Positions 29,384 through 52,885 of a stretch of DNA of 64,000 bases are shown in pieces (the stretch's first letter is position 1; each line of letters opens with the position of its first letter). A program made the position numbers and the translations under genes. Origin of the DNA: Caldilineae bacterium. GTDB taxonomy: Bacteria; Chloroflexota; Anaerolineae; DTLA01. Location: contig JBBIHX010000003.1 of assembly GCA_037446815.1 (NCBI GenBank), positions 291-64,290 on the forward strand. Reading direction: 5' to 3'. Under the pieces are notes generated by a model. The model did not search any database. It was not told the DNA's origin and was given only the letters and a program-made list of their open reading frames with translations.

Positions 29384-29516
29384 CCCGCGCCCTCGCAATG
29401 ACAGGCGGGGCCGGACTCCCTCGCCCTTCGGGAGAGGGCTGGGGTGAGGGGGATTGCTTCGGGCGCTCCGCGCCCTCGCAATGACAAATACCAACAGACT
29501 TTGGAACCGAATCGCC
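29384..29516 (-). repeat. MITE-like repeat family A, partial copy in reverse orientation
   Basis: The reverse complement reads GATTCGGTTCCAAAGTCTGTTGGTATTTGTCATTGCGAGGGCGCGGAGCGCCCGAAGCAATC..., matching the left half of the 23031 and 52691 copies. Confidence 0.6.
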
Positions 29517-34183: not shown

Positions 34184-35641
<1,458 letters not shown>

Positions 35642-36045: not shown

Positions 36046-36087
36046 GGTCGCCCCCGATGTAGGGGCGACCGATCGGTCGCCCCTACG
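36046..36087. repeat. Triple-arm palindrome GGTCGCCCC-cgatgta-GGGGCGACC-gatc-GGTCGCCCC, containing a perfect 28-nt palindrome (36059-36086)
   Basis: GTAGGGGCGACCGATCGGTCGCCCCTAC is a perfect inverted repeat with an extra upstream arm copy. It lies between the divergent proS leader and the + strand cluster promoter. Confidence 0.7.
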
Positions 36088-36166: not shown

Positions 36167-36195
36167 TTGACGGAAAATGAGACTAGGGTTATAAT
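36167..36195 (+). promoter_or_regulatory. Sigma70-type promoter (TTGACG-17 nt-TATAAT) of the signalling supercluster
   Basis: TTGACG at 36167-36172 and TATAAT at 36190-36195, 67 nt upstream of ATG 36262. Confidence 0.6.
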
Positions 36196-36261: not shown

Positions 36262-37074
36262 ATGGCCCTTAAGGGAAACCTGAAGGATTTCGGCGTTGCC
36301 CAACTGCTGAACCTGATTCACATCGCCCGCAAGACAGGTGCCCTCTCTGTCCGCAGCAATGGATTGTCGGCCACGCTGTATTTCCGCGAGGGGAAGTTGC
36401 TCGGCGCGTACCAGGATAGCCGCGACGACAGCCTTCTGGCCCTGCTCCAGCGCGCCGGCAAGATCACGCCCCAACAGGCGGAGAGCATCTTGTCCCGCGC
36501 CGAGACGCGCACCGACAAGGAGGTCGGCCTCCTTCTCCTCCACAACAACTACGTAACGCAGAAGGACATCCTCCAGGTGGTGCGGGCGGCGGCGCTGGAG
36601 ACCGTGTACGCCATCTTCGCCCTCACCGATGGCACCTTCCAGTTTGATCCCAATCGGATGCTCCCCCAAGAGAAAATCGGCGTTCCCATTGACCTGGACA
36701 ACGTCATCATGGAAGGGACGCGGCGGATGAAGGAATGGGAGCAGTTGCAGGCCGAGTTGCCCGACCTGGACGTGGCCCTGAAGTTCACCGACAGGCCTGG
36801 GACTTCCCTGAAGAACATCAGCCTGAGCGTGGAAGAGTGGCGGGTCATCTCCTTCATCAGCCCGCGCAACACCATTCGCCAAATCGCCCAGTATATCGGC
36901 CTGAGCGAGTTCCAGATTCGCAAAATCGTGTACGGTCTCCTGACGGCGGGCTTGGTGGAACTGGTGCGGCCCGAGGGCGCGCTGCCCCCTGGCCTACCGG
37001 GTCTTCCGCCGTCGCCAGCGGTCAAGCGGGGGGTGATCTTGCGCTTGATTGACAAAATTCGCCGCATCAGCTGA
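36262..37074 (+). CDS. DUF4388-domain protein (MglA-associated regulatory partner type)
   Basis: The N-terminal MALKGNLKDFGVAQLLNLIHIARKTGALSV...YFREGKLLGAY is the DUF4388 signature by eye. The Pro/Gly-rich C-terminal tail begins 18 nt upstream of the GTPase gene. Confidence 0.7.
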   Translation: MALKGNLKDFGVAQLLNLIHIARKTGALSVRSNGLSATLYFREGKLLGAYQDSRDDSLLALLQRAGKITPQQAESILSRAETRTDKEVGLLLLHNNYVTQKDILQVVRAAALETVYAIFALTDGTFQFDPNRMLPQEKIGVPIDLDNVIMEGTRRMKEWEQLQAELPDLDVALKFTDRPGTSLKNISLSVEEWRVISFISPRNTIRQIAQYIGLSEFQIRKIVYGLLTAGLVELVRPEGALPPGLPGLPPSPAVKRGVILRLIDKIRRIS

Positions 37075-37091
37075 CTCGGAGGAACTGCGGA

Positions 37092-37628
37092 ATGCAAGCG
37101 GTCAAAATGGTTATCACGGGCCCATTCAACGCGGGCAAGACGGAGTTCATCAAGACCATCAGCGAGATTGACGTTGTCTCCACCGAGCGGCGAATTTCCG
37201 ATGAGACGCGCGCCACAAAGGAAGAGACCACCGTTGCCATGGACTTCGGGCGCATCACCATTGACGAAGACCTGGTGCTTTTCCTGTTCGGCACGCCCGG
37301 GCAGAAGCGGTTTGATTTCATGTGGGAAATCCTATCCGAGGGGATGCTGGGGTTTATCGTGCTGGTGGACTCGGTGCGGCCCGAGACCTTCCGCGAGGCG
37401 CGCCGCATCTTGGATGTGTTCCGAACCTACGCGCCCGCGCCCTACGTGGTGGCGGCCAACAAGCAGGACCTGCCCGATGCCTGGAGCCCCCAGGACATCC
37501 GCATCGCCCTGCGCGTGGATCCAGGCGTCAAGGTCGTCCCGTGCGTTTCAACCGACAAAGAGAGCGTGAAGAGCGTCCTGCTGGAACTCCTGTACACGAT
37601 TCTGGAGAACTCCAAGGACGAGGAATAG
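37092..37628 (+). CDS. MglA-like small Ras-superfamily GTPase (178 aa)
   Basis: P-loop GPFNAGKT. The switch-II motif FGTPGQ is the TxxGQ variant (Thr replaces the canonical Asp), which is diagnostic of the MglA group. NKxD is present as ANKQD. GGAGG RBS. Confidence 0.8.
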   Translation: MQAVKMVITGPFNAGKTEFIKTISEIDVVSTERRISDETRATKEETTVAMDFGRITIDEDLVLFLFGTPGQKRFDFMWEILSEGMLGFIVLVDSVRPETFREARRILDVFRTYAPAPYVVAANKQDLPDAWSPQDIRIALRVDPGVKVVPCVSTDKESVKSVLLELLYTILENSKDEE

Positions 37629-37643
37629 CGAGGGGCCAACAGG

Positions 37644-38435
37644 TTGGGTTCCATCGTAACACGCCAAGGGATCGTGCATTATGAGACCCAAGGGAGCGGC
37701 CCGCCGGTCATCCTGTTGCATGGGTGGCTTGGCTCCTGGGGGTATTGGCTGGATACGATGGAGGCACTATCCGACGCCTTTCGCACGTATGCGCTGGACT
37801 TTTGGGGGTTTGGGGAGTCGGGCAAGCCGCGCAGCGGCTACGAAGTGGACGACTTCGTGAACCTGGTGGATCAGTTCATGGACCGCCTGGGGATACCGGC
37901 GGCTCCCGTGGTCGGGCACTCCATGGGCGGCACGGTCGCCCTGAAGTTGGCCATGGAGCGCCCCGAGCGGGTTACCAAGGTGGCGGTTGTCGGCTCGCCT
38001 ATCAACGGGCGTTCGTTGAGTTTGCCGTTGCGTTTGGCCGGGCGCAAGCCGGTGGCGTATCTCGTGTGGCACATGCCCGGGATGCTGCGATGGGGCATTC
38101 GGACCTTCTCGCCGCGGCTGGCCCACGACTGGCGCAAGTGGTACGACATGATTATGCACGACCTGTCGCGCACGACGCTGGAGGCCTTTCTGTCCAGCAT
38201 TCGGTCGCTGCGCCGGACGGATCTAACGCCCAGGCTGGGCGAGGTGCAGGTGCCGGTGTTGGGGTTCTACGGCCAGCGGGACCTCATCGTGGACCCGCGG
38301 CAGGGGGGCGTGCTGCTGCGCGGCGCGCCCAAGGCCGATTTGGCCAGGCTGGAGCACTGCGGCCACTTTCCGATGCTGGACGATCCGGCCCTGTTCAACA
38401 GCCGGTTGAGGCAGTTCTTGACCACATCGCATTGA
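37644..38435 (+). CDS. Alpha/beta-hydrolase fold protein (paralog A)
   Basis: HGWLGSW oxyanion region and a GHSMGG nucleophile elbow. Paralogous by eye to 51908..52687 (same N-terminal IVHYETQGSG/IIHYETLGRG, LHGWLGSW.YW). Confidence 0.75.
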   Translation: MGSIVTRQGIVHYETQGSGPPVILLHGWLGSWGYWLDTMEALSDAFRTYALDFWGFGESGKPRSGYEVDDFVNLVDQFMDRLGIPAAPVVGHSMGGTVALKLAMERPERVTKVAVVGSPINGRSLSLPLRLAGRKPVAYLVWHMPGMLRWGIRTFSPRLAHDWRKWYDMIMHDLSRTTLEAFLSSIRSLRRTDLTPRLGEVQVPVLGFYGQRDLIVDPRQGGVLLRGAPKADLARLEHCGHFPMLDDPALFNSRLRQFLTTSH

Positions 38436-38483
38436 CGGCAAGCACGGCGCTATTCGACGGTTCATCCTTTTCTCGGAGGACTC

Positions 38484-39206
38484 ATGGACGAGGAAAAAGA
38501 CATTCACCAGGAGCAGCACGGTCAGGAGGAGCAGCACGCTCACGAAGAGCCGCATGAGCACGGCGAGCATGAGCACGGCGAAGTGGCCCAGCCTCGGTAC
38601 TACTACGGCAACAAGATGGCACGCATCTACCTGCTGGCGCTGGAAGATGTGCTGGGCAAGAACGGCGTGAACGCTTTGCTCAACCTGGCGAAACTGAAGC
38701 ATCTCATCAACAACTACCCGCCCAACAACTTTGAGCGCGAGTTCCCGTTTGAGGACTTCGCGGCGCTGAACCAGGCGCTGGACGACGTGTACGGGCCGCG
38801 CGGCGGCCGGGGCCTGGGCACGCGAGGGGGCCGCGCCACGTTCAAGTACGTGCTCAAAGAATACGGCGCCATGTTGGGCATCAGCGACCTGGCCATGCGC
38901 CTCATGCCGCTGGGCATGAAACTGCGGCTGGGCCTCGGCGTGATGGCTGAGACCTTCAACCGCTCCAGCGACCAGGTGGTGCGCCTGGAAGAGGACAACG
39001 AGCACTTCTACTATCACATCGTTCGCTGCCCGGTGTGCTGGGGCCGCAAGTCGCAGACGCCGATATGCTACGTGGCGCTGGGCCTGTTGCAGGAGAGCCT
39101 CGCGTGGGTAACTGGCGGCAAGAACATGTCCGTTGTGGAGACGACCTGCATCGCCAAGGGCGACCCCACGTGCTGTTTCGTGATTGATAAGAAACCGTTG
39201 GATTAG
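38484..39206 (+). CDS. V4R-domain protein with a His-rich acidic N-terminal tail
   Basis: The C-terminal half carries the V4R cysteine pattern (CPVCWG...C...GDPTCCF). The N-terminal region HQEQHGQEEQHAHEEPHEHGEHEHGE is a candidate metal-binding tail. Confidence 0.7.
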   Translation: MDEEKDIHQEQHGQEEQHAHEEPHEHGEHEHGEVAQPRYYYGNKMARIYLLALEDVLGKNGVNALLNLAKLKHLINNYPPNNFEREFPFEDFAALNQALDDVYGPRGGRGLGTRGGRATFKYVLKEYGAMLGISDLAMRLMPLGMKLRLGLGVMAETFNRSSDQVVRLEEDNEHFYYHIVRCPVCWGRKSQTPICYVALGLLQESLAWVTGGKNMSVVETTCIAKGDPTCCFVIDKKPLD

Positions 39207-39409
39207 GCGGGGGAGAGCACGGGCAGATTGCGGCGCGGGATTCGGGGCCGCCCGCCGACGCGGCTCCGAGCCGTCCCGCTAGAAGCGCATCCTAGGCCGG
39301 GCGAGGTACCCCCCAGCCCGCCGGTCGGCCGAGGGCTTCCCGTGCCTCGCCCGGACGTGCGGGGAGGGGCGCGCAACACGGTGGGCGATCCGGAGGGTGC
39401 CAGAGGGCC

Positions 39410-40660
39410 ATGATACGGATAGTCATTCGGGATCGGACCAAGATACCCCCGTTCAACGAGCCTGCGCGCGATTTGCGCGTGCTCAATAAGCCCCTGTGGC
39501 TGCACCAGCGCGACGTGCTGGCGCGGTACTGCCTCACCGAGGTGGAAGTGGAAGTCGGCGACCCGCTGCCGCCCATCCGTGAAGAATGCCTGGTCTATCG
39601 CGACAACCTCTTCTTTGACGAGGACTTCATCCACGAGTTCTTGCGGTTGGCCAGGGCGCGGCGAAGGCCCTGTCAGGTGGCCTTCTCCCCCGACGACAAG
39701 GCCATCGTCGTTCACGCCCTCCCGCTCCAGGACAACATCCGCCTGCAAGGCGACGTGTATGTGGCCGACCTGTGGTACTACCCCAGCGGCCCCACCGACG
39801 AACCGCCGGAGCCGGTGGTGGTGGACACTATGGCGCAGGAAATCGGGTACTACCACATCCCCACCTACATGGCCTCGGAGAAGGGGGAACTGGTCTTCTG
39901 GGTTCCCTTGCGGCCGTTCCTGGCGATAGAGAACTGGGTGCATGTGTTCATGGCCAATTCGCCCTTTGGCATCTTCAGCATGGGGGCGAAGATGGAGCAC
40001 GAGGTGGCGCGCTTTTCCAAGGCGGCCCGCGTGCTGTTGCGTTCGCTGCTGGAGCGGCGGCAGTTCCTGTCGTCGTCGCGGATGATCCGCGTGGGGCGCA
40101 ACGTGCAGATAGACCCCACGGCCATCATCCAGGGGCCGGCCATCATCGGCGACAACACCACCATCGGCCCGGGCGCGGTGGTTACCAACTCCATCATCGG
40201 CAGCAACGTCAACGTCATGCAGGGATGCCAGGTGATGCTCAGCGTCGTCAGCGATGGGTGCTATCTCCCCTTCCGCGCGGCGCTGTTCATGACGACGCTC
40301 ATGGAGAATTCCATGGTGGCGCAGAATGCCACGCTGCAACTGTGCGTCGTCGGGCGGCATTCGTTTGTGGGGGCCAACACGGTCTTCACGGATTTCAATC
40401 TGCTGGGCAAGCCGCTGCGCACTATGCACAAAGGCCAGCCGCAGCCTGTGGGCTTGCCCGTTCTGGGCGGGTGCGTCGGACACAACTGTCGCATCGGCGC
40501 GGGGATGGTCATCTATCCGGCGCGCACCATTGAGTCGGATACGGTTCTCATCCGCGCCGAGGGCCGCGGCGTCATTTCGGACAACGTGCTGTTTGAGCAA
40601 AGCGACCACGTGCGGTTAGGAGAGGAGAGCCTGCATCCGCAGAAGTACACAAGGGGGTAG
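39410..40660 (+). CDS. Left-handed beta-helix (hexapeptide-repeat) protein with a unique N-terminal domain
   Basis: The C-terminal half has imperfect hexapeptide repeats (IIGDNTTIGPGAVVTNSIIGSNVNVMQGCQV..., VVGRHSFVGANTVF, CVGHNCRIGAGMVI). The N-terminal about 200 aa lacks a GxGTRL nucleotidyltransferase motif. The stop is 1 nt before the next start. Confidence 0.6.
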   Translation: MIRIVIRDRTKIPPFNEPARDLRVLNKPLWLHQRDVLARYCLTEVEVEVGDPLPPIREECLVYRDNLFFDEDFIHEFLRLARARRRPCQVAFSPDDKAIVVHALPLQDNIRLQGDVYVADLWYYPSGPTDEPPEPVVVDTMAQEIGYYHIPTYMASEKGELVFWVPLRPFLAIENWVHVFMANSPFGIFSMGAKMEHEVARFSKAARVLLRSLLERRQFLSSSRMIRVGRNVQIDPTAIIQGPAIIGDNTTIGPGAVVTNSIIGSNVNVMQGCQVMLSVVSDGCYLPFRAALFMTTLMENSMVAQNATLQLCVVGRHSFVGANTVFTDFNLLGKPLRTMHKGQPQPVGLPVLGGCVGHNCRIGAGMVIYPARTIESDTVLIRAEGRGVISDNVLFEQSDHVRLGEESLHPQKYTRG

Positions 40661-40661
40661 T

Positions 40662-41714
40662 ATGGAACGTTTCGGCTTTATCCTACACCCTTTGGATGTG
40701 CGGAGAGATGTGGCAAAGCGCTTCGCGGTTCTCAGCATCTTGCCGCTACGGTGGCTGGATTTCCTGTCGGGATATTTCCCGCCGGTGTACCTGTCGCACG
40801 TTACTGGCATTCGGTCTGCACTGGGTGATGAGGCGGAGGGTTGGCTTGTGGCCTGCCCGCTCACGCCCAGGGCGATGACCCGGTTCCCGCTGAAGCGCGT
40901 CTATCGGCAGATCATCCGCGCCGGGCAACTGGCCGAGCGGCTCGGCGCGCGCATCATTGGGCTGGGCGCGCTGACCTCAGCCGTCGGCGACGCGGGGGAG
41001 ACGGTGGCGCAGGGCCTGAAGGCAGCGGTAACGACGGGCAACAGTTACACGGTGGGGGTTACCTGCGGCGCCGTGCGCGCCATTGCCCGCACCCTGGGCA
41101 AGCCGCTGGAGGAGTTGCGCGTGGCGGTGCTGGGCGGGACGGGGTCCATCGGCAGCGCGTGTGCGCGCCTGCTGTGCCGCAACGTGGGAGAGGTGCGCAT
41201 CGTGGGCCGCGACCCTGCAGCGGTGGAACGCCTGGTGCGTTCGCTGGAACCGGTGGCGTATCGGGAGGTATCCGGCACGACCGACCTGATGGCCCTACGG
41301 GACGCGGACGTCATCGTCAGCGCTACCAACTCGGCAGGGCCACTCATCCGTCCGGAGCACTTGCGCCCGGGCGTCGCGGTGTACGACCTGGCGTTGCCTC
41401 CCGACGTGTCGGCGGCGGTGCGCCAAATGGGGCTGGATGTGCAGGTCTATTCCGGCGGCGATGTCCTGGTGCCGGGGAAGCCGAACTTCGGGTTTGACTT
41501 CGGGCTACCGCCCGGCCATGCCTACGCCTGCATGGCCGAGACGATAGCCTTGGCCTTGGAGGGTCGGTACGAGAACTACACGCTGGGGCGAAGTATCGCC
41601 CCAGAGCAGGTGCTGAAGATTTGCGTCATCGCCGAGCGGCATGGGTTCCGCCCCGCGCCTTTGCGCGCCAGGGGCAGGACCGTGGAAGTGCCCTCGTGCG
41701 TGGAAGTGGTATAA
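40662..41714 (+). CDS. Acyl-ACP-reductase (AAR)-like NAD(P)-binding protein
   Basis: By-eye alignment to cyanobacterial AAR throughout: FGFILHPL~[16 protein letters not shown]~[32 protein letters not shown]~[36 protein letters not shown]~[20 protein letters not shown]~VRHGFQP. The catalytic Cys of the AAR 'EHC' motif is not obvious here. Confidence 0.65.
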   Translation: [350 protein letters not shown]

Positions 41715-41762
41715 TAGAAGCCGGCAGGTGCGCTTGTACGACAGGTGTTAGGGAGGATAGAT

Positions 41763-42674
41763 ATGCCGAAGGACAGGATTCTAATCGTAGAAGATGACCG
41801 CGACATCTCCAGTCTGCTCGCCTTCTACTTTGAGTCCCAGGGCTATGAGATTCTGGCGACCACGCACGGCAACGAGGCCCTGGAGATTTCGCGGCGCAAG
41901 TTGCCCAACCTGGTGATTCTGGATATCAAACTTCCGGACATTGACGGCTACGAGGTATGCCGCCGCCTGCGCACCAACCTGCGCACCAGCCACATCCCTA
42001 TCATCTTCCTAACCCAGAAGGACGAGCGGGCCGACCGCATCGCCGGCCTGCAACTGGGCGCCGACGACTACATCACCAAGCCCTTTGACATGGAGGAACT
42101 CCACCTGCGGGTGAAGAACGCCCTGCGCCGAGCCAGTTACGAGAACCTCACGAACCCGGTTACGGGCCTCCCCAGCGGGCGGCTGATAGAGGAGCAGTTG
42201 AAATCCCTCATCCAGCGCAACAACTGGACGGTGCTGTATATCGGCGTGTGCGGGTTGCGCGCGTTCAACGACTTGTACGGCTTCGTCGCGGCGGACGACG
42301 TGCTCCGCTTTGCGGCGATGGTGTTGGGCGAGACGATTGACGCCCTGGAAGGCGGCCAGGACTTCGTGGGCCACATCGGCGGCGGCGACTTCATCATCAT
42401 CACCACGCCCGACCGCGAGGCGGCCCTGCGCGAACGCATCACGGCGCGGTTCAACAGCGAGGTCAAGAGTTTCTACAACTTCAAAGACCGCGAGCGCGGC
42501 TACCTTCTCATCAAGGACGAGACGGGGCGAGAGAAAAAGGTGGCGCTCATGACGCTGGCCGTGGGAACGGTGCACGGAGGGGCCGGGCGGTTCAGCGACA
42601 TCCGCGAAATCACCGAGGTGGCCTCCGACGCGCGCCGCGCCGCCGCCATCGCCCAGTGCGGCGAGATCGGCTAG
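41763..42674 (+). CDS. Response regulator: REC domain + degenerate GGDEF-like domain (GGDF)
   Basis: REC: ILIVEDDRDI...LDIKLPDIDGYEV...DDYITKPF. C-terminal: NPVTGLPSGR...HIGGGDFIIIT, GGDEF-like with a degenerate GG(D/E)EF motif. GGGAGG RBS before ATG 41763. Confidence 0.75.
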   Translation: MPKDRILIVEDDRDISSLLAFYFESQGYEILATTHGNEALEISRRKLPNLVILDIKLPDIDGYEVCRRLRTNLRTSHIPIIFLTQKDERADRIAGLQLGADDYITKPFDMEELHLRVKNALRRASYENLTNPVTGLPSGRLIEEQLKSLIQRNNWTVLYIGVCGLRAFNDLYGFVAADDVLRFAAMVLGETIDALEGGQDFVGHIGGGDFIIITTPDREAALRERITARFNSEVKSFYNFKDRERGYLLIKDETGREKKVALMTLAVGTVHGGAGRFSDIREITEVASDARRAAAIAQCGEIG

Positions 42675-42709
42675 CGGCCCTCCGGAATCTCTAGAGGCGG
42701 GGTTAGGGT

Positions 42710-45700: not shown

Positions 45701-48700
45701 GTGCAGGCCTTTGACGAGGACACGGTGAGGTTCCTGGAGGCGCTGGCCAACCAGGCGGGCGTGGCCATCGGCAACGCATGGCGGTACCAGGAGCAGGTGC
45801 GCCTGGGGGCCAGCCTCAGCCGCCGCGCCGAGCAACTGCGCAGCCTCTTGGAGATCGGCAACGCGCTCCGCATGAACCTGTCGCTGGAAGAGGTGCTGGA
45901 CCAGATTGTCTACGCCATCCCCGAAACGACGGGGTTCAACCTGGCCCTGTTGAGCGTCGTGGAGGGTGATCCGCCGTACCTGCGGCGCGTGGCGGCGGCA
46001 GGGCTGCCCATCGCCGTCTTTGAGGAGATGCGCCGCGTGCGGCAGCCTTTGGAGCGGTTCACCCGCATCATGCGCGACGAGTACCGCATCAGCCAGTCCT
46101 ATTTCTTCCCGCACCAGAAGGCGCACGAGTGGCAAGAGGGGTTGCACGTATACACGCCGCCGGCGCCCGATGAGGAGTGGGAGCAAGGCCGCTGGCACCC
46201 CGAAGACATGCTCATCGTCCCGCTCCATTCGTCCTCCGGCGAGATTCTGGGCCTGCTGAGCGTGGATGAGCCGCGCGATGGTCGGGTGCCCACCCGCGCC
46301 GTGGTGGAGGCGCTGGAGATCTTCGCCAACCAGGCGGCCACGGCCATTGAGAACGCGCAACTGTACGAGAAGCAGTTGGCCCAGAGCCAACTGATGGCGC
46401 GCCGCGCCGAGCAACTCAGCAACCTGCTCAACTTCGGCAACGCCCTGAAGGCCGAGATGAGCCTGGAGCAGGTGTGCCGCGAGATCGCCGATGCCGCACA
46501 CACGCAGATGGGCTATCGCCTCGTGGCGTTGAACCTGATTGATGGCGACGATCCGTCGCTGGTGCGTGTGGTGGCGACGGCGGGGGTGGACGCGGAGACC
46601 ACAGCCGCGCCCTTCCCGCGTTCCGCGCTGGAGAGCCTGCTGGACGAGCGGTATCGTATCAGCCAGTCGTACCTTATCACGGGGGACGGCAAGGGCGCGC
46701 TGGAGGGGAGCGGGGCGCCGGTGTACGTGCCCGATTTGGGCGAGCGCGGGCCCGACGAGTGGCAACCCACCGACGCCCTCATCGTCCCGCTGACCGGCAG
46801 CAAGGGGCACATCGGCTACCTGTCGCTGGATGACCCCGTGAGCCGCCGCCGACCAGAGCCCGAAGACATCGCCGCGCTGGAGGTGTTCGCGAACCAGGCG
46901 GCCATCGGCATTGAGAACGCCATGCTGTACGAGAACGTTATCTCGCGCATGCGCGAAATCTCGGCCATGTACGACGTGAGCCGAGGGTTGGTGTCCACCC
47001 TGGACCCGGAGGAGATGCTGGAGGACGTGTTGAGCGCGCTCCGACAGTCGGCCGGGTACGACAACTGCGCGTTCCTTCTGCTGGACCCGGTTGCCGACGA
47101 CCTGGTGGTGCGCGCCGCCGTGGGGTACATGGAAGACATCAAGGGCCTGCGCATCCAGGTGGGGCGCGAGGGCATCACCGGCTGGGTCGCCGAGAACAAG
47201 CAGCCCCTCGTGGTGCCCGACGTTACGCAGGACGCCCGATACATCCAGAAGGACTCGCAGACCCGCTCGGAGATCGCCGTGCCCATGATGGTGGGCAATC
47301 GGCTCATCGGCGTGCTGGATGCCCAGAGCAGCGAATTGGACGCCTTCGGCGAGCGGGACTTGCGCATCCTGTCGGCGGTGGCAGCGCAGACGGCCGTGGC
47401 CACTGAGAACAGCCGCCTGTATGAGGAGACGCGCCGCCGCGCCACGCAGTTGGAGGCCACCAGCGAGGTGGGGCGACGCATCGCGTCCATCCTGGGCCTG
47501 GATGAACTCCTCTCCGAAGTGGTGGAACTGGTGCACGAGACCTTCAACTACGACCACGTGCACGTGTTCCTGATTGACCCGGATACGCAAGAGGCGGTGT
47601 ACCGCGCGGGCAACGGCTCGGTGGGCCGCGCCATTCGCGAAGAGGGGCTTCGGCTGAAAGTGGGCCAGGAAGGGATGATTGGCCATGCCGCCAGCACCCG
47701 CCAGCCCCTCATCGCCAACGACGTTGCCAAAGACCCCTTCTACGTGCCGCACCCGCTGCTGGCCGACACGCGCTCGGAATGCACCGTCCCGCTGGTCATC
47801 GGAGACCGCGTCATCGGCGTTCTGGACGTGCAGAGCCACGAGTTGGACGCTTTTGGCGACGACGACCTGTTCCTGCTCCAGACCTTCGGCGACCAGTTGG
47901 CCGTGGCCATTGAGAACGCGCGCCTGTTTGAGGAGTCGGAGCGGCGGATCCGTTCCCTGGCGGCGCTGAACCGCATGGGCCAGACAATCAGCTCCACGCT
48001 GGACCTGACGGCGCTCCTGGACGAGGCCTATCGCCAGATTTCGCAGGTCATTGACGCCTCCAATTTCTACATCGCCTTCTACGACGAGGAGCGCGACGAG
48101 GTATCCTTCCCGCTGGCCATTGAGGAGGGTGAGCGCGTAACGTGGCAAAGCCGCCGCGGGACGCGCAGCCTGACCGAGCATATCATCCGCACGCGGCAGC
48201 CGCTATTCCTGCCGGAGAACGTGGTGGAGGCGGCCACCGAAATCCTGGGCAACCCGCCGGTGGGCCGGGCCGCCCTGTCGTGGATGGGCGTGCCGATGAT
48301 TGTGGGCGAGAAGGTCATCGGCGTCATCGCCGTGCAGAGTTATGCCAAGGCTCGCGCCTATACGGAAGAGGACCTCAACGTGCTGCAAACCATCGCGGCG
48401 CAAGTGGCCACGGCGGTGCAGAACGCCCGCCTGTTCCAGGAGACGCGCCAGAGCGCCGAGGAGATGCGCCTGCTGTACGACCTGGGTGTGGCCCTCAGCG
48501 AGACGCTGGAACTGGACCGCGTGCTGACGCTCATCGCCGAGAGCGCGCTGCAACTGACCCACACGCAAATCGCCACGCTGTACATCAAGGGCCAGACGGG
48601 CGATGAACTGACCTTCAAGGTTGTCTCGGACCCGCCGGAGCTGGCCCAGGGGATTGAAGTACACAAGCCGCGCGCCAAGGGCCTGACGGCGCAGATTCTC

Positions 48701-51475
48701 AAATCGGGCAAGCCGCTTATCCTGGACGACATTGCGCAGGACGAGCGCGTCAGCCCGGTTATCAAAGAGATGGGCATCCAGTCCATGATGGGCGTGCCGG
48801 TGCAGGTGGAGGGGCAGACCATCGGGGTGCTGTTTGCAGGCTCTAGGGAGTCCCACCACTTCACCGATAGGGACGTGTCGCTGGTCAACTTCCTGGTGAA
48901 CCAGGCGTCGCGCGCCATCCGCAACGCCCAGTTGTACGAGGAAATCACGCGCCTGAACCTGGAACTGGAAGAGCGCGTGGAGCAGCGCACGCGCGAACTG
49001 GCCAAGGCCAACGAGGAACTCACCATTGAGCGCGACCGCACCGAGGCGCTGTACCGCATCGCGCGCGAGTTGAGCCAGACGCTGGACCTGAACCGCGTGA
49101 TGAGCCGCGCCCTGCAATTGCTGAAAGAGTCCATCGGCATGAAGCGGGGCTCCATCCTCCTGCTGGATCAGCAGACCGGCAAACTGGTGCACCGCGCGTC
49201 GCTGACGCGGGGCACGCTGGAGCAGGGCGAGGCATCGCGGGCGTTCAGCGTGGGCGTTGGGCTGGCCGGGTGGGTGCTCCAGCACCGCCAGGCGGCCATC
49301 GTCCCCGACGTAACGAAGGACGAGCGGTGGCTCGCGACGGCGGGCGAGGAGACCGTGCGGTCGGCGCTGTCGGTGCCGCTACAGGCGGGCGAGGACATCC
49401 TTGGCGTGCTGACCCTGGCCGACCCGCGCCCCGACTACTTCAGCGAGGCCCACCTGAAGATGGTAACCGCCGCGGCCACACAGATCGCCACCGCCATCGG
49501 CAACGCCGAACTGTATCGGCTGATTCAGGAGCAAGCGGACCGCCTGGGCGACATGCTGCGCATGCAGCAGACCGAAGCGTCCAAGACCCGCGCCATCCTG
49601 GAGGGCATCGCCGACGGCGTGGTGGTTACCGACACCGACGGGCGCATCATCCTGTTCAACGACGCCGCCGAGCGCATCCTAGGCGTGCCGCGCAATGTCG
49701 TCATGAACGAGAACGTGCATGCCCTGCCGGCTACCCTGTCGGCGGGGGCCGAGATGGCGGCGCGTGGCCTGGCCGCCGTGAGCCGCTGGGTCGGCGTCGC
49801 GACCCGTCAGCGGCCCCAGATGGAAGAGCGCTTCGCCGTGGGCAACAAGGTGGCCAGCGTGCGCGTGGCCCCCGTGATGATGGGCGACGAACTGCTGGGC
49901 ACGGTGGCCCTGTTCCGCGACATCTCCAAGGAGGTGGAGGCCGAGCGCGTCAAGAACGAGTTCATCTCCACCGTGTCCCACGAGTTGCGCACGCCCATGA
50001 CCTCCATCAAGGGTTACACCGACCTGCTGTTCATGCAGGCCGCGGGGCCCATCACCGACGCCCAGCGCAAGTTCCTGACCGTCATCAAGTCCAACGCCGA
50101 CCGCCTGGCCACGCTGGTAAATGACCTGTTGGACATCTCCCGTATTGAGACCGGCCGCATCCGCCTTGACCGCCAGCCTACCGACGCCGCCAAGGTGATC
50201 CAGGACGTGGTAACGGCGCTCAGCAAGCAGGCGGACGAGAAGCAACTGACGGTTACCACCCGGATCAAGTCGCCGCTGCCGCCGGTGTACGCCGACCGCG
50301 ACCGCCTGACCCAGATTCTGACCAACCTGGTGGACAACGCGTGCCGGTATACGCCTGCGGGCGGGAAGATCACCGTGTCGGCGCGGCGCGTTTCCGACAA
50401 GGTGCAGATTGACGTAACCGACACCGGCATCGGCATCTCGCCCGAAGACCAGAAGAAGGTCTTTGACCGCTTCTATCGGGCCGACCATCCCGTCGTCCAA
50501 GAGACCGGCGGCACCGGCCTGGGCCTGGCCATCGTCAAGTCGTTCGTGGAGATGCACGGTGGCACCATCTGGCTGAAGAGCGAGTTGGGCAAGGGTTCAA
50601 CGTTCAGTTTCACGATGCCCATCGCCGTGTTTGACCAGCCGCTCCCGCCGCGCGAGGAAGTAACGGAGGAGGCCGAACCCATCGGCGCGGGCAAGCGCAT
50701 CCTGGTGGTGGAAGACGAGCCGGACATCGCCAACCTGGTGGCCCATCACCTGCGCGAGGAAGGGTATGAGGTGAGCACGTGCGGGCGCGGCGATGAGGTC
50801 ATGGACATCGCCCTGCGCGAAAAGCCGCACCTCATCACCCTGGACATCCGCCTGCCGGGCAAGGACGGGTTTGAGGTGCTCGGCGAGTTGAAGGCCCACC
50901 CGGAAACGTCGGAAATTCCCGTCGTCATCCTGTCCATCGTGCCCGACCCCGACCGAGCCTACCGATTGGGCGCGGTGGACTACCTGGGCAAGCCGGTGGA
51001 CGAGAAGCGCCTTGTCAACACGATACACTCCATCCTGTTCGCCCACGACCTGGTGCTCATCTGCGACGACAATGAGGACACGCAGAAACTGCTGCGCGAG
51101 GTCCTGGAGCGCAACGGATTCGTGGCCCGGACTGTGTCGGACGGACGCCAGGTGCTGGCCGTCGCTGAGAAGGAGCGCCCCGGCCTCATCCTGCTGGACC
51201 TCAAGATGCCCGGCCTGGACGGGTATTCGGTGTTGGAGCAACTGAAGCAGAATCCGAACACCGCCGACATCCCGGTGATTGTGATGACGGCCAGCATTGC
51301 CGACGACAAGGTGAAGCGCGACCGCGCGCTGGCGCTTGGAGCCGCCAAGTTCATGACCAAGCCCTTCTCCATCCCCGATTTGGTGGAGGAGGTGCGCAAG
51401 GCGCTGGAGGCCAGGGCCAAGGCCAACGGCAAGGCGCAACGGGCCGACCGCGAGGCCGCCGCGAGCGCCGAGTAA
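42710..51475 (+). CDS. Giant membrane-anchored hybrid sensor histidine kinase (2921 aa): about 5 TM - 12 tandem GAF - PAS - HisKA - HATPase_c - REC - REC
   Basis: N-terminal hydrophobic region of about 170 aa. Twelve GAF units, each ending in an (E/Q)NA(R/Q)L(Y/F) helix and sharing a VPDVT(K/Q)D...TRSE.(A/T)VP...(V/I)(L/I)GVL core. PAS (ILEGIADGVVVTDTDGRIILFN), H-box (STVSHELRTPMTSIKGY), HATPase (LVDNACRYT...GTGLGLAIVK), then two REC domains (KRILVVEDEPDI...; LVLICDDNEDTQ...). Confidence 0.85.
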   Translation: MNVSKGRLRAQQVVAWLYWFGWLYVLISSLTNQGRVGLWVLALLAAQWLVLRVGAVRAFRARHALLGLLAVEVPFSIAVFYLTGGRTSPASILAYFLVGLGAAHLPLAALAVYILGITVAFLLPLVPPLWPAGEPIRWQYLVTGLFSYYALGYIVRYLVQAEERERAEHLESQEVLAESRRRVNELTALQRISRQLGSTLELDKLLPMIVEETVAATPATHGALLLVDENTGKLALRASYGYTPDQIMAYKELDFESTKTIVGRVRETGQPALIADVSQDADYFALVPETRSEVAVPIRMGNVVVGVLNLEARTPNAFADADVHFLEAIADQAALALANAQLYTATDRTLARRVEELGAMSEITRELASTLDLHRVLDLLIGRAIQATGATSALAGLYDPETDTLELLAHRNYPTLITAEGTVERPATGGITQRVVRTGRPALVPDVTKDPDYVPALPDTRSQLTVPIRYENQVLGVLNLESNRPAAFTHENLAFVENLANQAAVAVRNARLYDQELRRLQEISLLNEVGQAISGSLDLESTLQTILESARRLLDYYVAEVNLWDEDQGVMVTCAAAGESGYLTQVGTTYTPEQGYTGWITRNQKPLFIPDTRARADVQPRVSLEDTPYRSYMGVPLVKGQKLVGTLEMAADRPNAFSQQDLRLLQAIAGQAAVAIENARLYEETQSRVDEMAGLFQIAGIVTSTLDMDQMLQETLRKTAELLKAEKMALLLYNETTERLEARASAVVGLPPEEAEMLSIDAQTPDFAYGVFRTGRPFRSSDAPHDKRIIPAYRPLIEKYGFRTVLSVPLRTQDVILGELHAGNKRDGAFSTEDERLLATVAAQLAAGIQNLRLYQRTDEQLRHQIDQMTALQRITRELNATLELERILEVVITEAIRATRASHGNIALLDVESGTFHIAAYKGYSAEEEAILQKMTLGSGNSIAEDAIRAAKSIIVADARKETRPVCIRKGTLSAVAVPILYEGAVAGVISLRAMEVQAFDEDTVRFLEALANQAGVAIGNAWRYQEQVRLGASLSRRAEQLRSLLEIGNALRMNLSLEEVLDQIVYAIPETTGFNLALLSVVEGDPPYLRRVAAAGLPIAVFEEMRRVRQPLERFTRIMRDEYRISQSYFFPHQKAHEWQEGLHVYTPPAPDEEWEQGRWHPEDMLIVPLHSSSGEILGLLSVDEPRDGRVPTRAVVEALEIFANQAATAIENAQLYEKQLAQSQLMARRAEQLSNLLNFGNALKAEMSLEQVCREIADAAHTQMGYRLVALNLIDGDDPSLVRVVATAGVDAETTAAPFPRSALESLLDERYRISQSYLITGDGKGALEGSGAPVYVPDLGERGPDEWQPTDALIVPLTGSKGHIGYLSLDDPVSRRRPEPEDIAALEVFANQAAIGIENAMLYENVISRMREISAMYDVSRGLVSTLDPEEMLEDVLSALRQSAGYDNCAFLLLDPVADDLVVRAAVGYMEDIKGLRIQVGREGITGWVAENKQPLVVPDVTQDARYIQKDSQTRSEIAVPMMVGNRLIGVLDAQSSELDAFGERDLRILSAVAAQTAVATENSRLYEETRRRATQLEATSEVGRRIASILGLDELLSEVVELVHETFNYDHVHVFLIDPDTQEAVYRAGNGSVGRAIREEGLRLKVGQEGMIGHAASTRQPLIANDVAKDPFYVPHPLLADTRSECTVPLVIGDRVIGVLDVQSHELDAFGDDDLFLLQTFGDQLAVAIENARLFEESERRIRSLAALNRMGQTISSTLDLTALLDEAYRQISQVIDASNFYIAFYDEERDEVSFPLAIEEGERVTWQSRRGTRSLTEHIIRTRQPLFLPENVVEAATEILGNPPVGRAALSWMGVPMIVGEKVIGVIAVQSYAKARAYTEEDLNVLQTIAAQVATAVQNARLFQETRQSAEEMRLLYDLGVALSETLELDRVLTLIAESALQLTHTQIATLYIKGQTGDELTFKVVSDPPELAQGIEVHKPRAKGLTAQILKSGKPLILDDIAQDERVSPVIKEMGIQSMMGVPVQVEGQTIGVLFAGSRESHHFTDRDVSLVNFLVNQASRAIRNAQLYEEITRLNLELEERVEQRTRELAKANEELTIERDRTEALYRIARELSQTLDLNRVMSRALQLLKESIGMKRGSILLLDQQTGKLVHRASLTRGTLEQGEASRAFSVGVGLAGWVLQHRQAAIVPDVTKDERWLATAGEETVRSALSVPLQAGEDILGVLTLADPRPDYFSEAHLKMVTAAATQIATAIGNAELYRLIQEQADRLGDMLRMQQTEASKTRAILEGIADGVVVTDTDGRIILFNDAAERILGVPRNVVMNENVHALPATLSAGAEMAARGLAAVSRWVGVATRQRPQMEERFAVGNKVASVRVAPVMMGDELLGTVALFRDISKEVEAERVKNEFISTVSHELRTPMTSIKGYTDLLFMQAAGPITDAQRKFLTVIKSNADRLATLVNDLLDISRIETGRIRLDRQPTDAAKVIQDVVTALSKQADEKQLTVTTRIKSPLPPVYADRDRLTQILTNLVDNACRYTPAGGKITVSARRVSDKVQIDVTDTGIGISPEDQKKVFDRFYRADHPVVQETGGTGLGLAIVKSFVEMHGGTIWLKSELGKGSTFSFTMPIAVFDQPLPPREEVTEEAEPIGAGKRILVVEDEPDIANLVAHHLREEGYEVSTCGRGDEVMDIALREKPHLITLDIRLPGKDGFEVLGELKAHPETSEIPVVILSIVPDPDRAYRLGAVDYLGKPVDEKRLVNTIHSILFAHDLVLICDDNEDTQKLLREVLERNGFVARTVSDGRQVLAVAEKERPGLILLDLKMPGLDGYSVLEQLKQNPNTADIPVIVMTASIADDKVKRDRALALGAAKFMTKPFSIPDLVEEVRKALEARAKANGKAQRADREAAASAE

Positions 51476-51505
51476 AAACTTCTTCCCGGGGACTGGGTTA
51501 GGATT

Positions 51506-51883
51506 ATGCCAAAGATCGTTGTGGCGGAAGACGAGCGGGACATCTTGGAGTTGATTCGCTTTGTCTTGGAGTTCAACGGGTTTGAGGTCGTGACGGCGAG
51601 CAACGGGGAGGAAGCCGTCCAACAGGCGCTGGCGACCATGCCCGACTTGGTGCTGATGGACGTGCGCATGCCGCGCATGACCGGGCACCAGGCGTGCCAG
51701 GCGCTGAAAGCCAACCCCAAGACCCAAAATATCCCGGTGGTGTTCCTTTCCGCGCGCGGGCAGGAGGCCGACATCAAGCAGGGGCTTTCGCTCGGGGCGG
51801 CGGACTACATCCTCAAGCCCTTCTCGCCGGAGGAGTTGCCCAATCGGCTGCGGAACGTGTTGGCCGCGGCGGGAAGCAAATGA
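51506..51883 (+). CDS. Single-domain CheY-like response regulator
   Basis: A 125-aa protein: KIVVAEDERDI...DLVLMDVRMPRMTG...ADYILKPF. Located 30 nt after the kinase. Confidence 0.8.
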   Translation: MPKIVVAEDERDILELIRFVLEFNGFEVVTASNGEEAVQQALATMPDLVLMDVRMPRMTGHQACQALKANPKTQNIPVVFLSARGQEADIKQGLSLGAADYILKPFSPEELPNRLRNVLAAAGSK

Positions 51884-51907
51884 CATGCAGGCGGTCGGGG
51901 AGCGGCG

Positions 51908-52687
51908 ATGAGCGTCATCCTCATTGAGGAGCGAATCATCCACTACGAGACGCTGGGGCGAGGCAAGCCGCTGATCTTTCTGCACGGCTGGCTCGGCTCG
52001 TGGCGCTACTGGATGCACGCCATGGAGGCGCTCTCGGAGAACTACCGTACCCACGCTTTTGACCTGTGGGGATACGGCGACTCGGACAAGCAGGGCGGGC
52101 GCCATGATTTGGATTCCTACCTGCGCCTGCTGGAAGCCTTCATGGATCAGATGGGTATCCTGAAGGCGCCGCTGGTGGCGCACAGTCTGGGGGGCATCCT
52201 CGCCGTGCACTTCGCGGCGAAGCACCCGGATCGCGTGCCTCGGCTCGCGCTGGTGAGCACGCCCCTCACCGACGCGGGCCTCAATGCCGGCGCTATCCTC
52301 GGCAAGTCGGCCCTCGGCAAGTTCCAGCAGAAGCGGCAGATTACGCACGACATCGTGTGGCAGGACATTGCCCGCATCGCCCCGAAGGCCATTGACGAAA
52401 GCCTGGCCAGCCTGAAGAAGTTTGACCTTCGGCCCCTGCTCCAGCAGATGCAGATGCCCTCGCTCATCGTGTACGGGCGCAAGGACGGGCTGGTGGATCC
52501 CGGGCAGGCGGCCGGCCTGGAGGGCAACAACCCCCGGATGCGCGTCCTCACCATGCCCGACTCTCGGCACTTCCCCATGTTGGACGAGGTGAGCCGCTTC
52601 AATCGGCTGCTCATGGATTTCCTGGAAGTCGGGGAAGACTTGACCGAGTTGGACCTGAAGACGGAGTGGCGCCGCCGCACCCATTGA
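51908..52687 (+). CDS. Alpha/beta-hydrolase fold protein (paralog B)
   Basis: LHGWLGSWRYW, nucleophile elbow AHSLGG. Paralog of 37644..38435. Confidence 0.75.
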   Translation: MSVILIEERIIHYETLGRGKPLIFLHGWLGSWRYWMHAMEALSENYRTHAFDLWGYGDSDKQGGRHDLDSYLRLLEAFMDQMGILKAPLVAHSLGGILAVHFAAKHPDRVPRLALVSTPLTDAGLNAGAILGKSALGKFQQKRQITHDIVWQDIARIAPKAIDESLASLKKFDLRPLLQQMQMPSLIVYGRKDGLVDPGQAAGLEGNNPRMRVLTMPDSRHFPMLDEVSRFNRLLMDFLEVGEDLTELDLKTEWRRRTH

Positions 52688-52690
52688 CGG

Positions 52691-52840
52691 GATTCGGTTC
52701 CAGAGTCTGTTGTTAGCCGTCATTGCGAGGGCACGCAGTGCCCGAAGCAATCTCCGGGGCGTGGGATTGCTTCGCTTCGCTCGCAATGACACACGAGGAG
52801 GGTGCGCCTGCAATTCACCAACACAAGATGAAACCGAGTC
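52691..52840 (+). mobile_element. MITE (family A), 150 bp, with 12-nt terminal inverted repeats and an apparent 8-9-bp target-site duplication
   Basis: TIRs are GATTCGGTTCCA...TGAAACCGAGTC. The element is flanked on both sides by (C)ATTGACGG (52682-52690 and 52840-52848). It is inserted directly after the hydrolase TGA stop. The internal long hairpin is GTCATTGCGAGGGC...GCTCGCAATGACAC. Confidence 0.7.
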
Positions 52841-52885
52841 ATTGACGGCGGCGCGGCAACCATTACCACACGGAGGCCCTACCCT

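Follow-up and report, generated by a model that had tools for sequence, protein, structure and literature searches.

A conserved ten-gene cluster of Anaerolineae joins a PATAN-GTPase pair to predicted two-component signalling

Ten open reading frames (ORFs), all on the + strand at positions 36262-52687 of the window (the whole 64-kb stretch of DNA that was analysed, from an uncultured Anaerolineae (Chloroflexota) bacterium), appear from sequence and gene order to form a real conserved signalling unit. With modest confidence, we read this conserved Anaerolineae operon as a conservon-like G-protein-coupled two-component system, whose enzymes would make its ligand or output. The PATAN-GTPase pair itself has been published, and the new part is the extended cluster around it; no description of this cluster was found in the searched literature, which agrees with the original prediction that the gene order is not a described system. 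The domain calls made for all ten genes were confirmed with Pfam and NCBIfam.

In gene order, the intergenic gaps are 17, 15, 48, 203, 1, 30, 35, 30 and 24 nt, and GC3 periodicity is strong in all ten ORFs (0.81-0.88). The layout is thus the expected one of ten co-directional genes with small gaps (1-48 nt) and a single gap of 203 nt. The predicted near-consensus promoter is of sigma-70 type (TTGACG-17-TATAAT; 36167..36195, + strand) and agrees with the consensus at 11 of 12 positions. Together with the downstream ribosome-binding site it is identical in the close relative L003, whose intergenic DNA is otherwise divergent; promoter-like sites as a whole (3 in the region versus 2.3 +/- 1.5 in shuffles) are no more frequent than chance. 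The 203-nt gap (39207..39409, + strand) lies within the operon between the V4R and LbH genes. A promoter and terminator search of this gap gave no match, its fold energy equals that of shuffles (z = 0.65), and its 3' half is kept in L003. The gap is short in other species, 203 nt being specific to this lineage, and it could hold an unrecognised internal promoter. Because the other gaps are only 1-48 nt and no internal promoter or terminator was matched, we infer co-transcription: the ten genes are predicted to form one transcript from the 36167-36195 promoter, which is supported by its consensus match and conservation.

For comparison, 80 species-level Chloroflexota/Anaerolineae loci were used, 63 of which have enough flank for gene order. 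The recurring order, found in about 45 of these 63, is PATAN, GTPase, (Roadblock), hydrolase, (V4R), LbH, (reductase), REC/pseudo-GGDEF, multi-GAF kinase, CheY and (hydrolase), with optional genes in brackets. Among the 63 loci, LbH is present in 45, REC-GGDEF in 46, the hydrolase in 42, V4R in 33, the reductase in 32, and the multi-GAF kinase, following REC-GGDEF, in at least 39; the CheY-like receiver follows the kinase in 7 of the 10 loci with long enough sequence. The order is conserved in Anaerolineales, Caldilineaceae, Thermoflexales, Ardenticatena, Aggregatilineales and others, and was also recovered by independent gene calls labelled with Pfam. The suggested genome-context check therefore found the genes as same-order neighbours in most related species genomes, which supports the proposed coupling of a GTPase module to two-component signalling in one co-directional unit.

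Since the order is kept in dozens of species, the arrangement is far beyond chance. The conservation is partly shared ancestry, because the related loci are all metagenome-assembled genomes (MAGs) of one phylum. Protein identity among same-order loci is 45-65% and the flanking genes differ, and this divergence, with proteins down to 45-55%, together with the changed flanks argues for selection. The neighbours are proS with a T-box in this window, DUF3048 in L001, L002 and L085, and SIR2 in L083. A chance juxtaposition of three unrelated same-strand operons (GTPase pair, enzyme set and two-component system) could appeal to the 203-nt gap as a division between transcription units and to modules that can occur apart, but it is highly improbable given about 45 species-level genomes with the same order, such divergence and differing flanks, a wide gap that is lineage-specific, and narrow gaps elsewhere.

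The modules do occur apart in several loci. PATAN-GTPase stands alone at the site in 13 of 63 loci; in Thermoflexus the kinase branch is absent and the enzyme trio still accompanies PATAN-GTPase, as it does, without kinase, in L069. Three short variants (L032, L046 and L049) consist of PATAN-GTPase-REC/GGDEF-kinase-CheY without any enzymes. It follows from the GTPase-only loci and from Thermoflexus that the parts are separable modules.

Both boundary elements named in the original prediction were found. At the 5' boundary, a lineage-specific three-arm palindrome (36046..36086) lies between divergent promoters and is made of two overlapping perfect inverted repeats (arms 36046-36054/36062-36070 and 36059-36072/36073-36086); it is absent from L003. 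At the 3' boundary there is a MITE-like element (52691-52840; 52682..52848 with its flanking repeat), which has imperfect terminal inverted repeats of 22 nt and a perfect inner hairpin of 11 nt (52719-52729/52780-52790). The 9-nt direct repeat CATTGACGG flanks it at 52682-52690 and 52840-52848. A second, near full-length copy is located at about 23030-23165 in the window, and a partial copy at 29392-29485. PADLOC anti-phage defence models gave only generic REC matches.

The first gene encodes a stand-alone PATAN (DUF4388/PatA_N) protein of 270 aa (36262..37074, + strand; Pfam PF14332, 1.8e-30), which is directly upstream of the GTPase in 75 of 75 related loci. Its C-terminal region is weakly wHTH-like, with a MarR_2 match below threshold, and it has no sequence-detectable relative among solved structures. 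PatA-type regulators carry PATAN and REC in one protein (bioRxiv 10.1101/2021.06.11.447907); no fused REC was found here by the Pfam/NCBIfam search, so the protein is not a PatA-type response regulator by this feature.

The second gene encodes a small GTPase of 178 aa (37092..37628, + strand) with ATP_bind_1, Arf and Ras matches (Pfam/NCBIfam). Its motifs are G1 GPFNAGKT, G2 TTV, G3 GTPGQ and G4 NKQD, and they agree with both the P-loop GxxxxGK[ST] and the G4 [NT]KxD of MglA groups 2-5. GTPGQ and NKQD are invariant in 81 of 81 GTPase sequences, in which G2 reads xTTVAMDFG. The alignment with T. thermophilus MglA is gapless across G1-G2, meaning that the bacterial insertion is present, and the G2 TT aligns on RT, with Thr in place of Arg53; the Asgard Arf-like GTPase has 5 residues fewer between G1 and G2. 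Judged by its motifs against the group criteria of PMC4316618 (G3 GTPGQ; Thr versus the group 1 Arg beside the G2 Thr), the GTPase is assigned to MglA family groups 2-5, and to group 5 by taxon and context. A group 1 motility/polarity MglA (SofG) is ruled out by Thr for the arginine finger and by G3 GTPGQ, not TVPGQ. The "polarity/motility-type" switch of the original prediction is thus right as to the MglA family and wrong as to the group, which is 5 (TT/GTPGQ) and not 1, so motility is an assumption and not a finding. Median identity to relatives is 77% for the GTPase versus 41-57% for neighbouring genes, as would be expected for a hub protein.

These features bear on the reading of the cluster as a polarity/motility controller of the MglA/PatA type, in which GTPase and PATAN, controlled by the kinase, would direct the machinery for type IV pili or gliding to a cell pole. 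Its models are Frz-RomR-MglA in Myxococcus and the PATAN-REC regulators acting on PilB1 in Synechocystis, and cyanobacterial PATAN regulators bind the T4P motor ATPase (bioRxiv 10.1101/2021.06.11.447907). M. xanthus PATAN proteins are among MglA-related candidates, the literature ties PATAN-MglA/MglB neighbourhoods to motility (PMC4316618; bioRxiv 10.1101/2021.06.11.447907), and one related locus (L002) has a chemotaxis cluster just upstream. Nevertheless, we consider this reading unlikely, for the GTPase is without the Arg finger and TVPGQ that define characterised motility MglA (group 1), no pilus, gliding or chemotaxis gene occurs in the 64-kb window, and known motility modules contain nothing comparable to the conserved enzyme trio. 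What's more, the cluster is also present in the cultured Anaerolinea thermolimosa, a species described as a non-motile filament.

The V4R-domain protein (240 aa; 38484..39206, + strand) has a His/Glu-rich N-terminal tail and matches Pfam V4R with 34.2 bits, above the gathering score of 31. Its fold is the alpha/beta two-layer type of H-NOX/Bet3/PoxR, which places it in this superfamily. It contains five invariant Cys in the C-terminal region, the part in which PoxR and Thor-TRAPPC3 have a Cys-based Zn site (PMC10933270). Source annotations label it as "hydrocarbon binding protein". A Roadblock/MglB gene was not found in the 64-kb window by tblastn, and only 18 related loci have one nearby in cis; V4R adjoins the Roadblock gene in 17 of 17 related cases, in three arrangements around PATAN-GTPase.

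Four genes encode enzyme-like proteins. Alpha/beta hydrolase 1 (263 aa; 37644..38435, + strand; Abhydrolase_1, 1.9e-34) keeps GHSMGG, Asp and His in 52 orthologues, and alpha/beta hydrolase 2 (259 aa; 51908..52687, + strand; Abhydrolase_1, 4.9e-33) has the same position in L023, L039, L043 and L061. The predicted LbH protein (416 aa; 39410..40660, + strand; Hexapep/LbH match) does have the left-handed beta-helix (LbH), with a conserved His, and is refined to a two-domain protein that also has a pyrophosphorylase-like domain (NT), a fold like that of ST0452/GMPPB/eIF2B. The NT domain has no GxGxR signature, the loop reading RDRTKIPPFNEPA, and Pfam NTP_transferase was not detected in the protein. 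A nucleotidylyltransferase/acetyltransferase of GlmU/ST0452 type was rejected on this loss of the G-x-G-x-R loop, and the NT domain may be non-catalytic because the canonical nucleotide-binding loop is lacking.

The remaining enzyme is an AAR/PigE-N-type NAD(P)-dependent thioester reductase-like protein (350 aa; 40662..41714, + strand; Shikimate_DH-type). Its profile matches are the PigE N-terminal region (1.5e-55) and AcACP_reductase (5e-23), below both NCBIfam cut-offs, and its relatives among structures are the PigE N-terminal domain 4ppm (2.4e-36) and acyl-ACP reductase 6jzq (1.1e-22). Of 36 orthologues nearly all have the CMAE(T) motif, and every variant listed has the Cys. The equivalog cyanobacterial acyl-ACP reductase (AAR, TIGR04058) was rejected at 81.9 bits against a cut-off of 449.7; we therefore call the protein AAR-like and not AAR, given the fold relation and the conserved Cys.

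One could regard these enzymes as the core of a small-molecule or lipid-modification cluster, in which hydrolases, an acyltransferase-like NT-LbH protein and a thioester reductase would give, for example, a fatty aldehyde or acylated product, regulated by the GTPase, V4R and two-component genes. The kept catalytic residues of hydrolase, reductase and LbH proteins, the relation of the reductase to acyl-ACP reductase and the PigE N-terminal domain, the "hydrocarbon binding" annotation of V4R, and the enzyme trio kept with PATAN-GTPase in Thermoflexus and L069 speak for it. We find it quite unlikely, as genes for a carrier protein, synthase, ligase or exporter are missing, the GTPase is by far the most conserved gene, the three short variants dispense with all enzymes, and the nucleotide-binding signature is gone from the NT domain.

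The two-component part begins with a response regulator of 309 aa (41745..42674, + strand; REC 5.3e-31, GGDEF 8.6e-10). Its receiver Asp is conserved, and its GGDEF is degenerate, as predicted, throughout the family: this protein reads GGGDF at the signature and its orthologues read GGDNF, GGDDF or GSNDF, PleD D327 is replaced by G, N or C, and an RxxD I-site is missing. An active diguanylate cyclase is ruled out by the lost signature and metal-binding Asp. The next gene encodes a hybrid histidine kinase of 2921 aa with 12 GAF, PAS, HisKA, HATPase and 2 REC (42710..51475, + strand; Pfam domains). Residues 1-160 are hydrophobic (about 5 TM helices), which predicts a membrane-anchored kinase, and the GAF units span 185-2276. 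A single-domain CheY-like receiver of 125 aa follows (51506..51883, + strand; Response_reg, 3.5e-30). For the phosphorelay of the original prediction, kinase and receivers are encoded, but no Hpt protein for a classical multistep relay was found.

In the conservon-like reading, the membrane-anchored 12-GAF/PAS hybrid kinase would integrate membrane and cytoplasmic small-molecule signals and, as conserved adjacency and intact receiver Asp suggest, phosphorylate the REC-pseudoGGDEF protein and the CheY-like receiver. The pseudo-GGDEF, having lost its catalytic residues, cannot make c-di-GMP and would be a binding or output domain. By analogy with RomR/MglB on MglA and CvnA/CvnB on CvnD, the receivers and V4R might determine whether the GTPase is in its GTP or GDP state or which partner it chooses, and Roadblock/MglB, paired with V4R in many relatives, would join this control there. 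The hydrolase (intact triad), NT-LbH protein (conserved His) and AAR/PigE-type reductase (conserved Cys) may make or remove an acyl-derived small molecule, either a ligand of V4R/GAF or the physiological output. The GTP-bound GTPase would act via PATAN on a spatial or cell-envelope target.

Among known systems, the PATAN-MglA pair is a published recurrent neighbourhood (Makarova et al. 2006; Wuichet & Sogaard-Andersen 2015, PMC4316618 Table S2), listed in that table for Anaerolinea thermophila ANT_06780, Chloroflexus, Roseiflexus, Herpetosiphon, Aquificae, cyanobacteria and Deinococcus. Group 5 neighbourhoods are said to "vary widely", the published description ends at PATAN/MglA/MglB, and orphan MglA genes are allowed in the classification (PMC4316618). 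Our locus shares with the published group 5 pairs the stand-alone upstream PATAN, a GTPase of about 176-180 aa, G2 TT and G3 GTPGQ, but across Anaerolineae the pair is accompanied by eight more conserved genes, and, unlike PATAN-MglA-MglB neighbourhoods, MglB is not in cis in this window.

The Myxococcus MglA-MglB-RomR/RomX and Frz system likewise places a Ras-like GTPase under the control of regulators with the Roadblock fold and of receiver-domain proteins that a histidine kinase feeds, whereas the GTPase here is of group 5 without intrinsic Arg finger, not group 1, with no RomR/RomX or Frz proteins and no motility genes nearby. V4R beside Roadblock and a small GTPase in relatives resembles eukaryotic/Asgard TRAPP (Bet3/TRAPPC3 and longin/Roadblock platforms for Rab GTPases), but the likeness is one of fold and gene adjacency alone, the V4R fold matching H-NOX and PoxR ligand sensors equally well; in Asgard MK-D1, TRAPP-type genes are reported outside operons (PMC10933270). 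The NT-LbH protein is built like ST0452/GlmU/GMPPB and the eIF2B epsilon/gamma pseudo-enzymes, and lacks the GxGxR loop as do non-catalytic members of the eIF2B/GMPPA type.

In conclusion, the actinobacterial conservon (CvnA kinase, CvnB Roadblock, CvnC DUF742, CvnD GTPase; MglA group 2), a precedent for kinase, Roadblock and GTPase together (PMC4316618), appears to be the closest analogue. It differs in having G4 NxFD, not NKQD, and a HAMP kinase with a C-terminal LPxR motif instead of a 12-GAF hybrid kinase ending in two REC; free receivers, PATAN, V4R and enzymes distinguish this cluster, in which no protein has a DUF742 match (Pfam/NCBIfam), so that CvnC is lacking. Both have a membrane histidine kinase and a GTPGQ-type GTPase, with Roadblock encoded alongside in relatives of this cluster, and in both the GTPase is plausibly the output of a kinase-driven switch.

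The window holds the co-directional cluster of an MglA-like GTPase and two-component signalling genes that the original prediction had described; our analysis confirms this observation and, with refinements, supports the interpretation. The cluster consists of ten plus-strand ORFs at 36262-52687, located exactly where they had been placed, and all of them have the GC bias at third codon positions that real genes show (the sequence has 65% GC). The intergenic gaps of 17, 15, 48, 203, 1, 30, 35, 30 and 24 nt are likewise confirmed. Pfam and NCBIfam bear out all the domain labels, which are in order DUF4388/PatA_N (PATAN), small GTPase, alpha/beta hydrolase (hydrolase-1), V4R, hexapeptide/left-handed beta-helix (LbH), a Shikimate_DH-type reductase related to the PigE N-terminal domain and acyl-ACP reductase, REC-GGDEF, a 2921-aa kinase (by Pfam 12 GAF, PAS, HisKA, HATPase and two REC), a CheY-like receiver and a second alpha/beta hydrolase. 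NCBI entries for the window's proteins carry generic names only. The predicted promoter at 36167-36195 (TTGACG-17-TATAAT) matches at 11 of 12 positions, and it is identical base for base, together with the ribosome-binding site, in the close relative L003, while the intergenic DNA around them has diverged. No RNA was found in or beside the cluster by Rfam at gathering thresholds, and the 203-nt gap contains no structured element, promoter or terminator signal above shuffles. In this V4R-LbH spacer the 3' half (39300-39409) is nearly identical to L003 12215-12333, whereas the two sequences have drifted apart in the 5' half.

Both proposed boundaries, an upstream three-arm palindrome and a downstream MITE with a 9-nt direct repeat, are real, and they are lineage-specific features. 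The MITE-like element has three copies in the window (one partial), at about 23030-23165, 29392-29485 and 52691-52840, which share a GTCATTGCGAG...CTCGCAATGAC hairpin core. The direct repeat CATTGACGG lies on both sides of the copy at 52691-52840, and the first of the two repeats shares bases with the stop codon of the final gene in the cluster. The chromosomal setting is ordinary, with proS and its T-box leader upstream on the opposite strand, an epimerase gene and comEC downstream, and the nuo operon farther upstream. The T-box leader (35745-35979, minus strand) precedes the divergent prolyl-tRNA synthetase gene (34184-35611, minus strand) and has a promoter at 36027-35999 and a terminator-like hairpin at 35758-35736, both on the minus strand. 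Its hit to the full Rfam T-box model has E 3.7e-14, and it is missed at default thresholds because its 66.4 bits fall below the gathering score of 93. Most of the "empty" DNA ahead of the cluster is explained by this leader; as it belongs to proS, the region was rejected as a part of the cluster. An antisense ORF of 1281 codons inside the kinase gene (44336-48181, minus strand) is almost certainly no gene, lacking the coding-type GC3 signal that the plus-strand gene has, and such ORFs are typical of high-GC coding regions. Elsewhere in the window, a 993-aa RtcB RNA ligase gene (17592-20573, minus strand) is interrupted by an intein, with the Intein_splicing match at residues 117-610.

To see whether the gene order is conserved, as the original prediction had proposed, we compared it with that of relatives, where it recurs. 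The GTPase, V4R and LbH proteins find their best matches in MAGs of Chloroflexota/Anaerolineae, and two look-ups with independent gene calls and Pfam labels found the same order beside GTPase homologues at 82% identity. A species scan with one genome per species gave 581 relatives, of which the best 80 loci were compared by tblastn with the window's proteins as queries. These 80 closest loci are all from Chloroflexota and Anaerolineae-like, the Chloroflexia genes Caur_0665, Rcas_1730 and Haur_0845 lying outside the set; by label most are Anaerolineae/Anaerolineales, and Caldilineaceae, Thermoflexales, Ardenticatena, Aggregatilineales and Leptolinea are also included. PATAN is directly 5' of the GTPase in every locus with upstream sequence (75 of 75). 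In the 63 loci that extend 6 kb or more downstream, we found LbH in 45, REC-GGDEF in 46, hydrolase-1 in 42, V4R in 33, the reductase in 32 and a multi-GAF kinase in at least 39, always in the order PATAN-GTPase-[Roadblock]-hydrolase-[V4R]-LbH-[reductase]-REC/GGDEF-kinase. CheY comes after the kinase in 7 of the 10 loci whose sequence extends that far, and in several the second hydrolase comes next. With the window as reference, the GTPase has a median identity of 77% and the remaining cluster genes 41-57%, and the flanking genes vary between lineages; the order is therefore held by selection and not by recency alone. Chance juxtaposition of unrelated genes is contradicted by these comparative data and is hardly credible.

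The loci also differ in an informative way. Short variants (L032, L046 and L049) consist of PATAN-GTPase-REC/GGDEF-kinase-CheY and lack the enzymes, while Thermoflexus and locus L069 have PATAN-GTPase-hydrolase-LbH-reductase and lack the kinase branch. In Thermoflexus sp. (L083/L084, 7744-12509), for instance, the cluster ends after the reductase, with no V4R, REC-GGDEF or kinase, so the enzyme trio can stay with the GTPase pair when the two-component branch is absent. The reading as a metabolic cluster to which regulators were added seems improbable to us, since the variants without enzymes exist and the GTPase is the most constrained gene. The PATAN-GTPase pair stands alone at the site in 13 loci, 9 of which have a convergent Roadblock-V4R pair adjoining, and three loci carry an extra upstream Roadblock-V4R-REC/GGDEF module. 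Roadblock-V4R, sometimes followed by REC-pseudoGGDEF, is a second recurrent module beside PATAN-GTPase, both in genomes without the long cluster there and, as an additional copy, in genomes with it. It is found on the minus strand in L021 (10549-12354), where the gene after V4R encodes a family-2 glycosyltransferase, in L033, L034, L036, L042, L048, L050, L064 and L067, and upstream of PATAN in L031, L075 and L077. In all 17 cases where a Roadblock gene has room around it, V4R is encoded no more than 1.1 kb away on that strand.

The GTPase contains the motifs GPFNAGKT (G1), TTV (G2), GTPGQ (G3) and NKQD (G4), and GTPGQ and NKQD are invariant in 81 of 81 GTPase sequences. In an alignment to Thermus MglA, its arginine finger RT corresponds to TT and its TVPGQ to GTPGQ, which are the signatures of MglA groups 2-5 (PMC4316618). 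The label "MglA-like" is therefore correct, but the protein is not a group 1 MglA, the group of known motility role. Pairs of PATAN and MglA group 5 (176-179 aa) are listed for Anaerolinea, Chloroflexus, Roseiflexus and Herpetosiphon, and PATAN/MglA/MglB triads for Aquificae, cyanobacteria and Deinococcus (PMC4316618 Table S2). In the literature searched we found no characterised member of group 5. The PATAN protein is stand-alone, without REC, and its C-terminal region is weakly wHTH-like; a PDB sequence search returned no solved relative. A controller of polarity for T4P or gliding would fit the PATAN literature, but we regard this role as unlikely, for the GTPase is outside group 1, no motility genes lie near the cluster in the window, and the cluster also exists in the cultured Anaerolinea thermolimosa, which is described as non-motile. 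One Anaerolineales MAG, the only example that came to our attention, encodes a complete chemotaxis set (MCP, CheA-CheW-REC, CheY, CheB and additional receivers; L002/L004, 1-6347) a few kb upstream of its PATAN-GTPase cluster.

Hydrolase-1 retains GHSMGG, Asp and His. The reductase aligns over its whole length with the PigE N-terminal domain (4ppm) and cyanobacterial acyl-ACP reductase (6jzq) and retains the CMAE(T) cysteine motif, but it scores far under the equivalog cut-offs and is not a true AAR. The predicted LbH domain is confirmed, although the protein really has two domains, with the N-terminal 145 residues confidently modelled. The model of the whole protein superposes on ST0452, GMPPB, VTC1, eIF2B epsilon and gamma and ADP-glucose pyrophosphorylase. 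At the N-terminus of the protein there is no glycine-rich GxGxR loop, and Pfam detects no NTP_transferase domain; a PFNEPA motif and, in the beta-helix, a GHxCR motif are invariant. It is not a true GlmU. The REC-GGDEF protein has lost its counterpart of PleD Asp327 and contains no RxxD site, as expected from the degenerate GGDEF reported earlier; the signature is GGGDF in the window and GGDNF, GGDDF or GSNDF in orthologues, while the receiver aspartate is intact. Judged by these residues, the protein is a conserved pseudo-cyclase and not an active cyclase. The kinase has about five N-terminal transmembrane helices and then the GAF array at residues 185-2276. We detected an Hpt domain in none of the cluster proteins.

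The V4R protein begins with a His/Glu/Gln-rich, low-complexity tail, MDEEKDIHQEQHGQEEQHAHEEPHEHGEHEHGE (38484-38590, the first ~35 codons), which is restricted to the closest relatives, is disordered in the model and could bind metal. As a speculative idea to which we give little weight, V4R and the Roadblock accompanying it in the 17 related cases might form a ligand-gated GEF/GAP platform for the MglA-group-5 GTPase. It is similarly doubtful that such a platform is the bacterial functional counterpart, possibly an evolutionary relative, of the TRAPP Bet3 and longin/Roadblock core. In that case an acyl ligand, reminiscent of the palmitate bound by TRAPPC3, would be supplied or removed by the LbH acyltransferase-like protein, the hydrolases and the neighbouring acyl-thioester reductase. 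Were the idea right, this would be the first operon-encoded machine of V4R, Roadblock and a small GTPase, and prokaryotic V4R proteins of "function unknown" would gain a role in G-protein regulation. The strict pairing of Roadblock and V4R beside a small GTPase bears on the debate over prokaryotic antecedents of TRAPP and Ragulator; Asgard GTPase/Roadblock/TRAPPC3 genes are reported not to be operon-linked in MK-D1 (PMC10933270).

The conserved promoter, tight spacing and conserved order, together with an MglA-group-5 switch and PATAN, a ligand-sensor-fold protein travelling with Roadblock, enzymes whose catalytic residues are intact, a live receiver bearing a dead cyclase domain and a membrane multi-sensor kinase, lead us to infer a G-protein-coupled two-component system. 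On balance we favour the view that the cluster is a single functional unit, a system of the conservon-like general kind, and by conservation alone the "single unit" part is much more secure than the individual arrows of the mechanism. In such a system, the kinase would sense membrane and GAF-bound signals and phosphorylate two free receivers, which with V4R (and Roadblock where present) may govern the nucleotide state or partners of the GTPase. The GTP-bound GTPase would act with PATAN on some target, and the ligand of V4R/GAF, or else the output, might be an acyl-type small molecule that the enzymes produce or remove.

To our knowledge, no function has been assigned to MglA group 5 GTPases, to stand-alone PATAN or to prokaryotic V4R proteins, all three of which are widespread. 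The locus binds them to defined partners in an operon conserved across a class abundant in sediments, wastewater and anaerobic digesters; these partners are a multi-GAF kinase of the membrane, a pseudo-cyclase, two receivers and three or four enzymes that keep their catalytic residues intact. The partners make pairwise questions testable, such as GEF, GAP or effector of the GTPase, ligand of V4R and receiver phosphorylated by the kinase. As for the claim of an undescribed system, we did not find the extended order described, but its PATAN-MglA(-MglB) core is already known; group 5 neighbourhoods were said to "vary widely", with nothing reported beyond PATAN and MglB (PMC4316618). The sole printed extended order that we found, in a literature of incomplete coverage, is an uncommented appendix table of nirS neighbours in Anaerolinea thermolimosa, listing DUF4388, a "Srp102" GTPase, an MhpC hydrolase and a glmU-like gene. 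In the literature searched, papers on V4R/Bet3 or Asgard GTPase/Roadblock/TRAPPC3 report no such operon, and Podar 2008 on V4R/Bet3 leaves a GTPase context unmentioned. A PADLOC search for a defence system gave nothing. Although the cluster lacks the defining features of a conservon and is not one, the conservon, the actinobacterial system of kinase, Roadblock and GTPase, provides its functional precedent.
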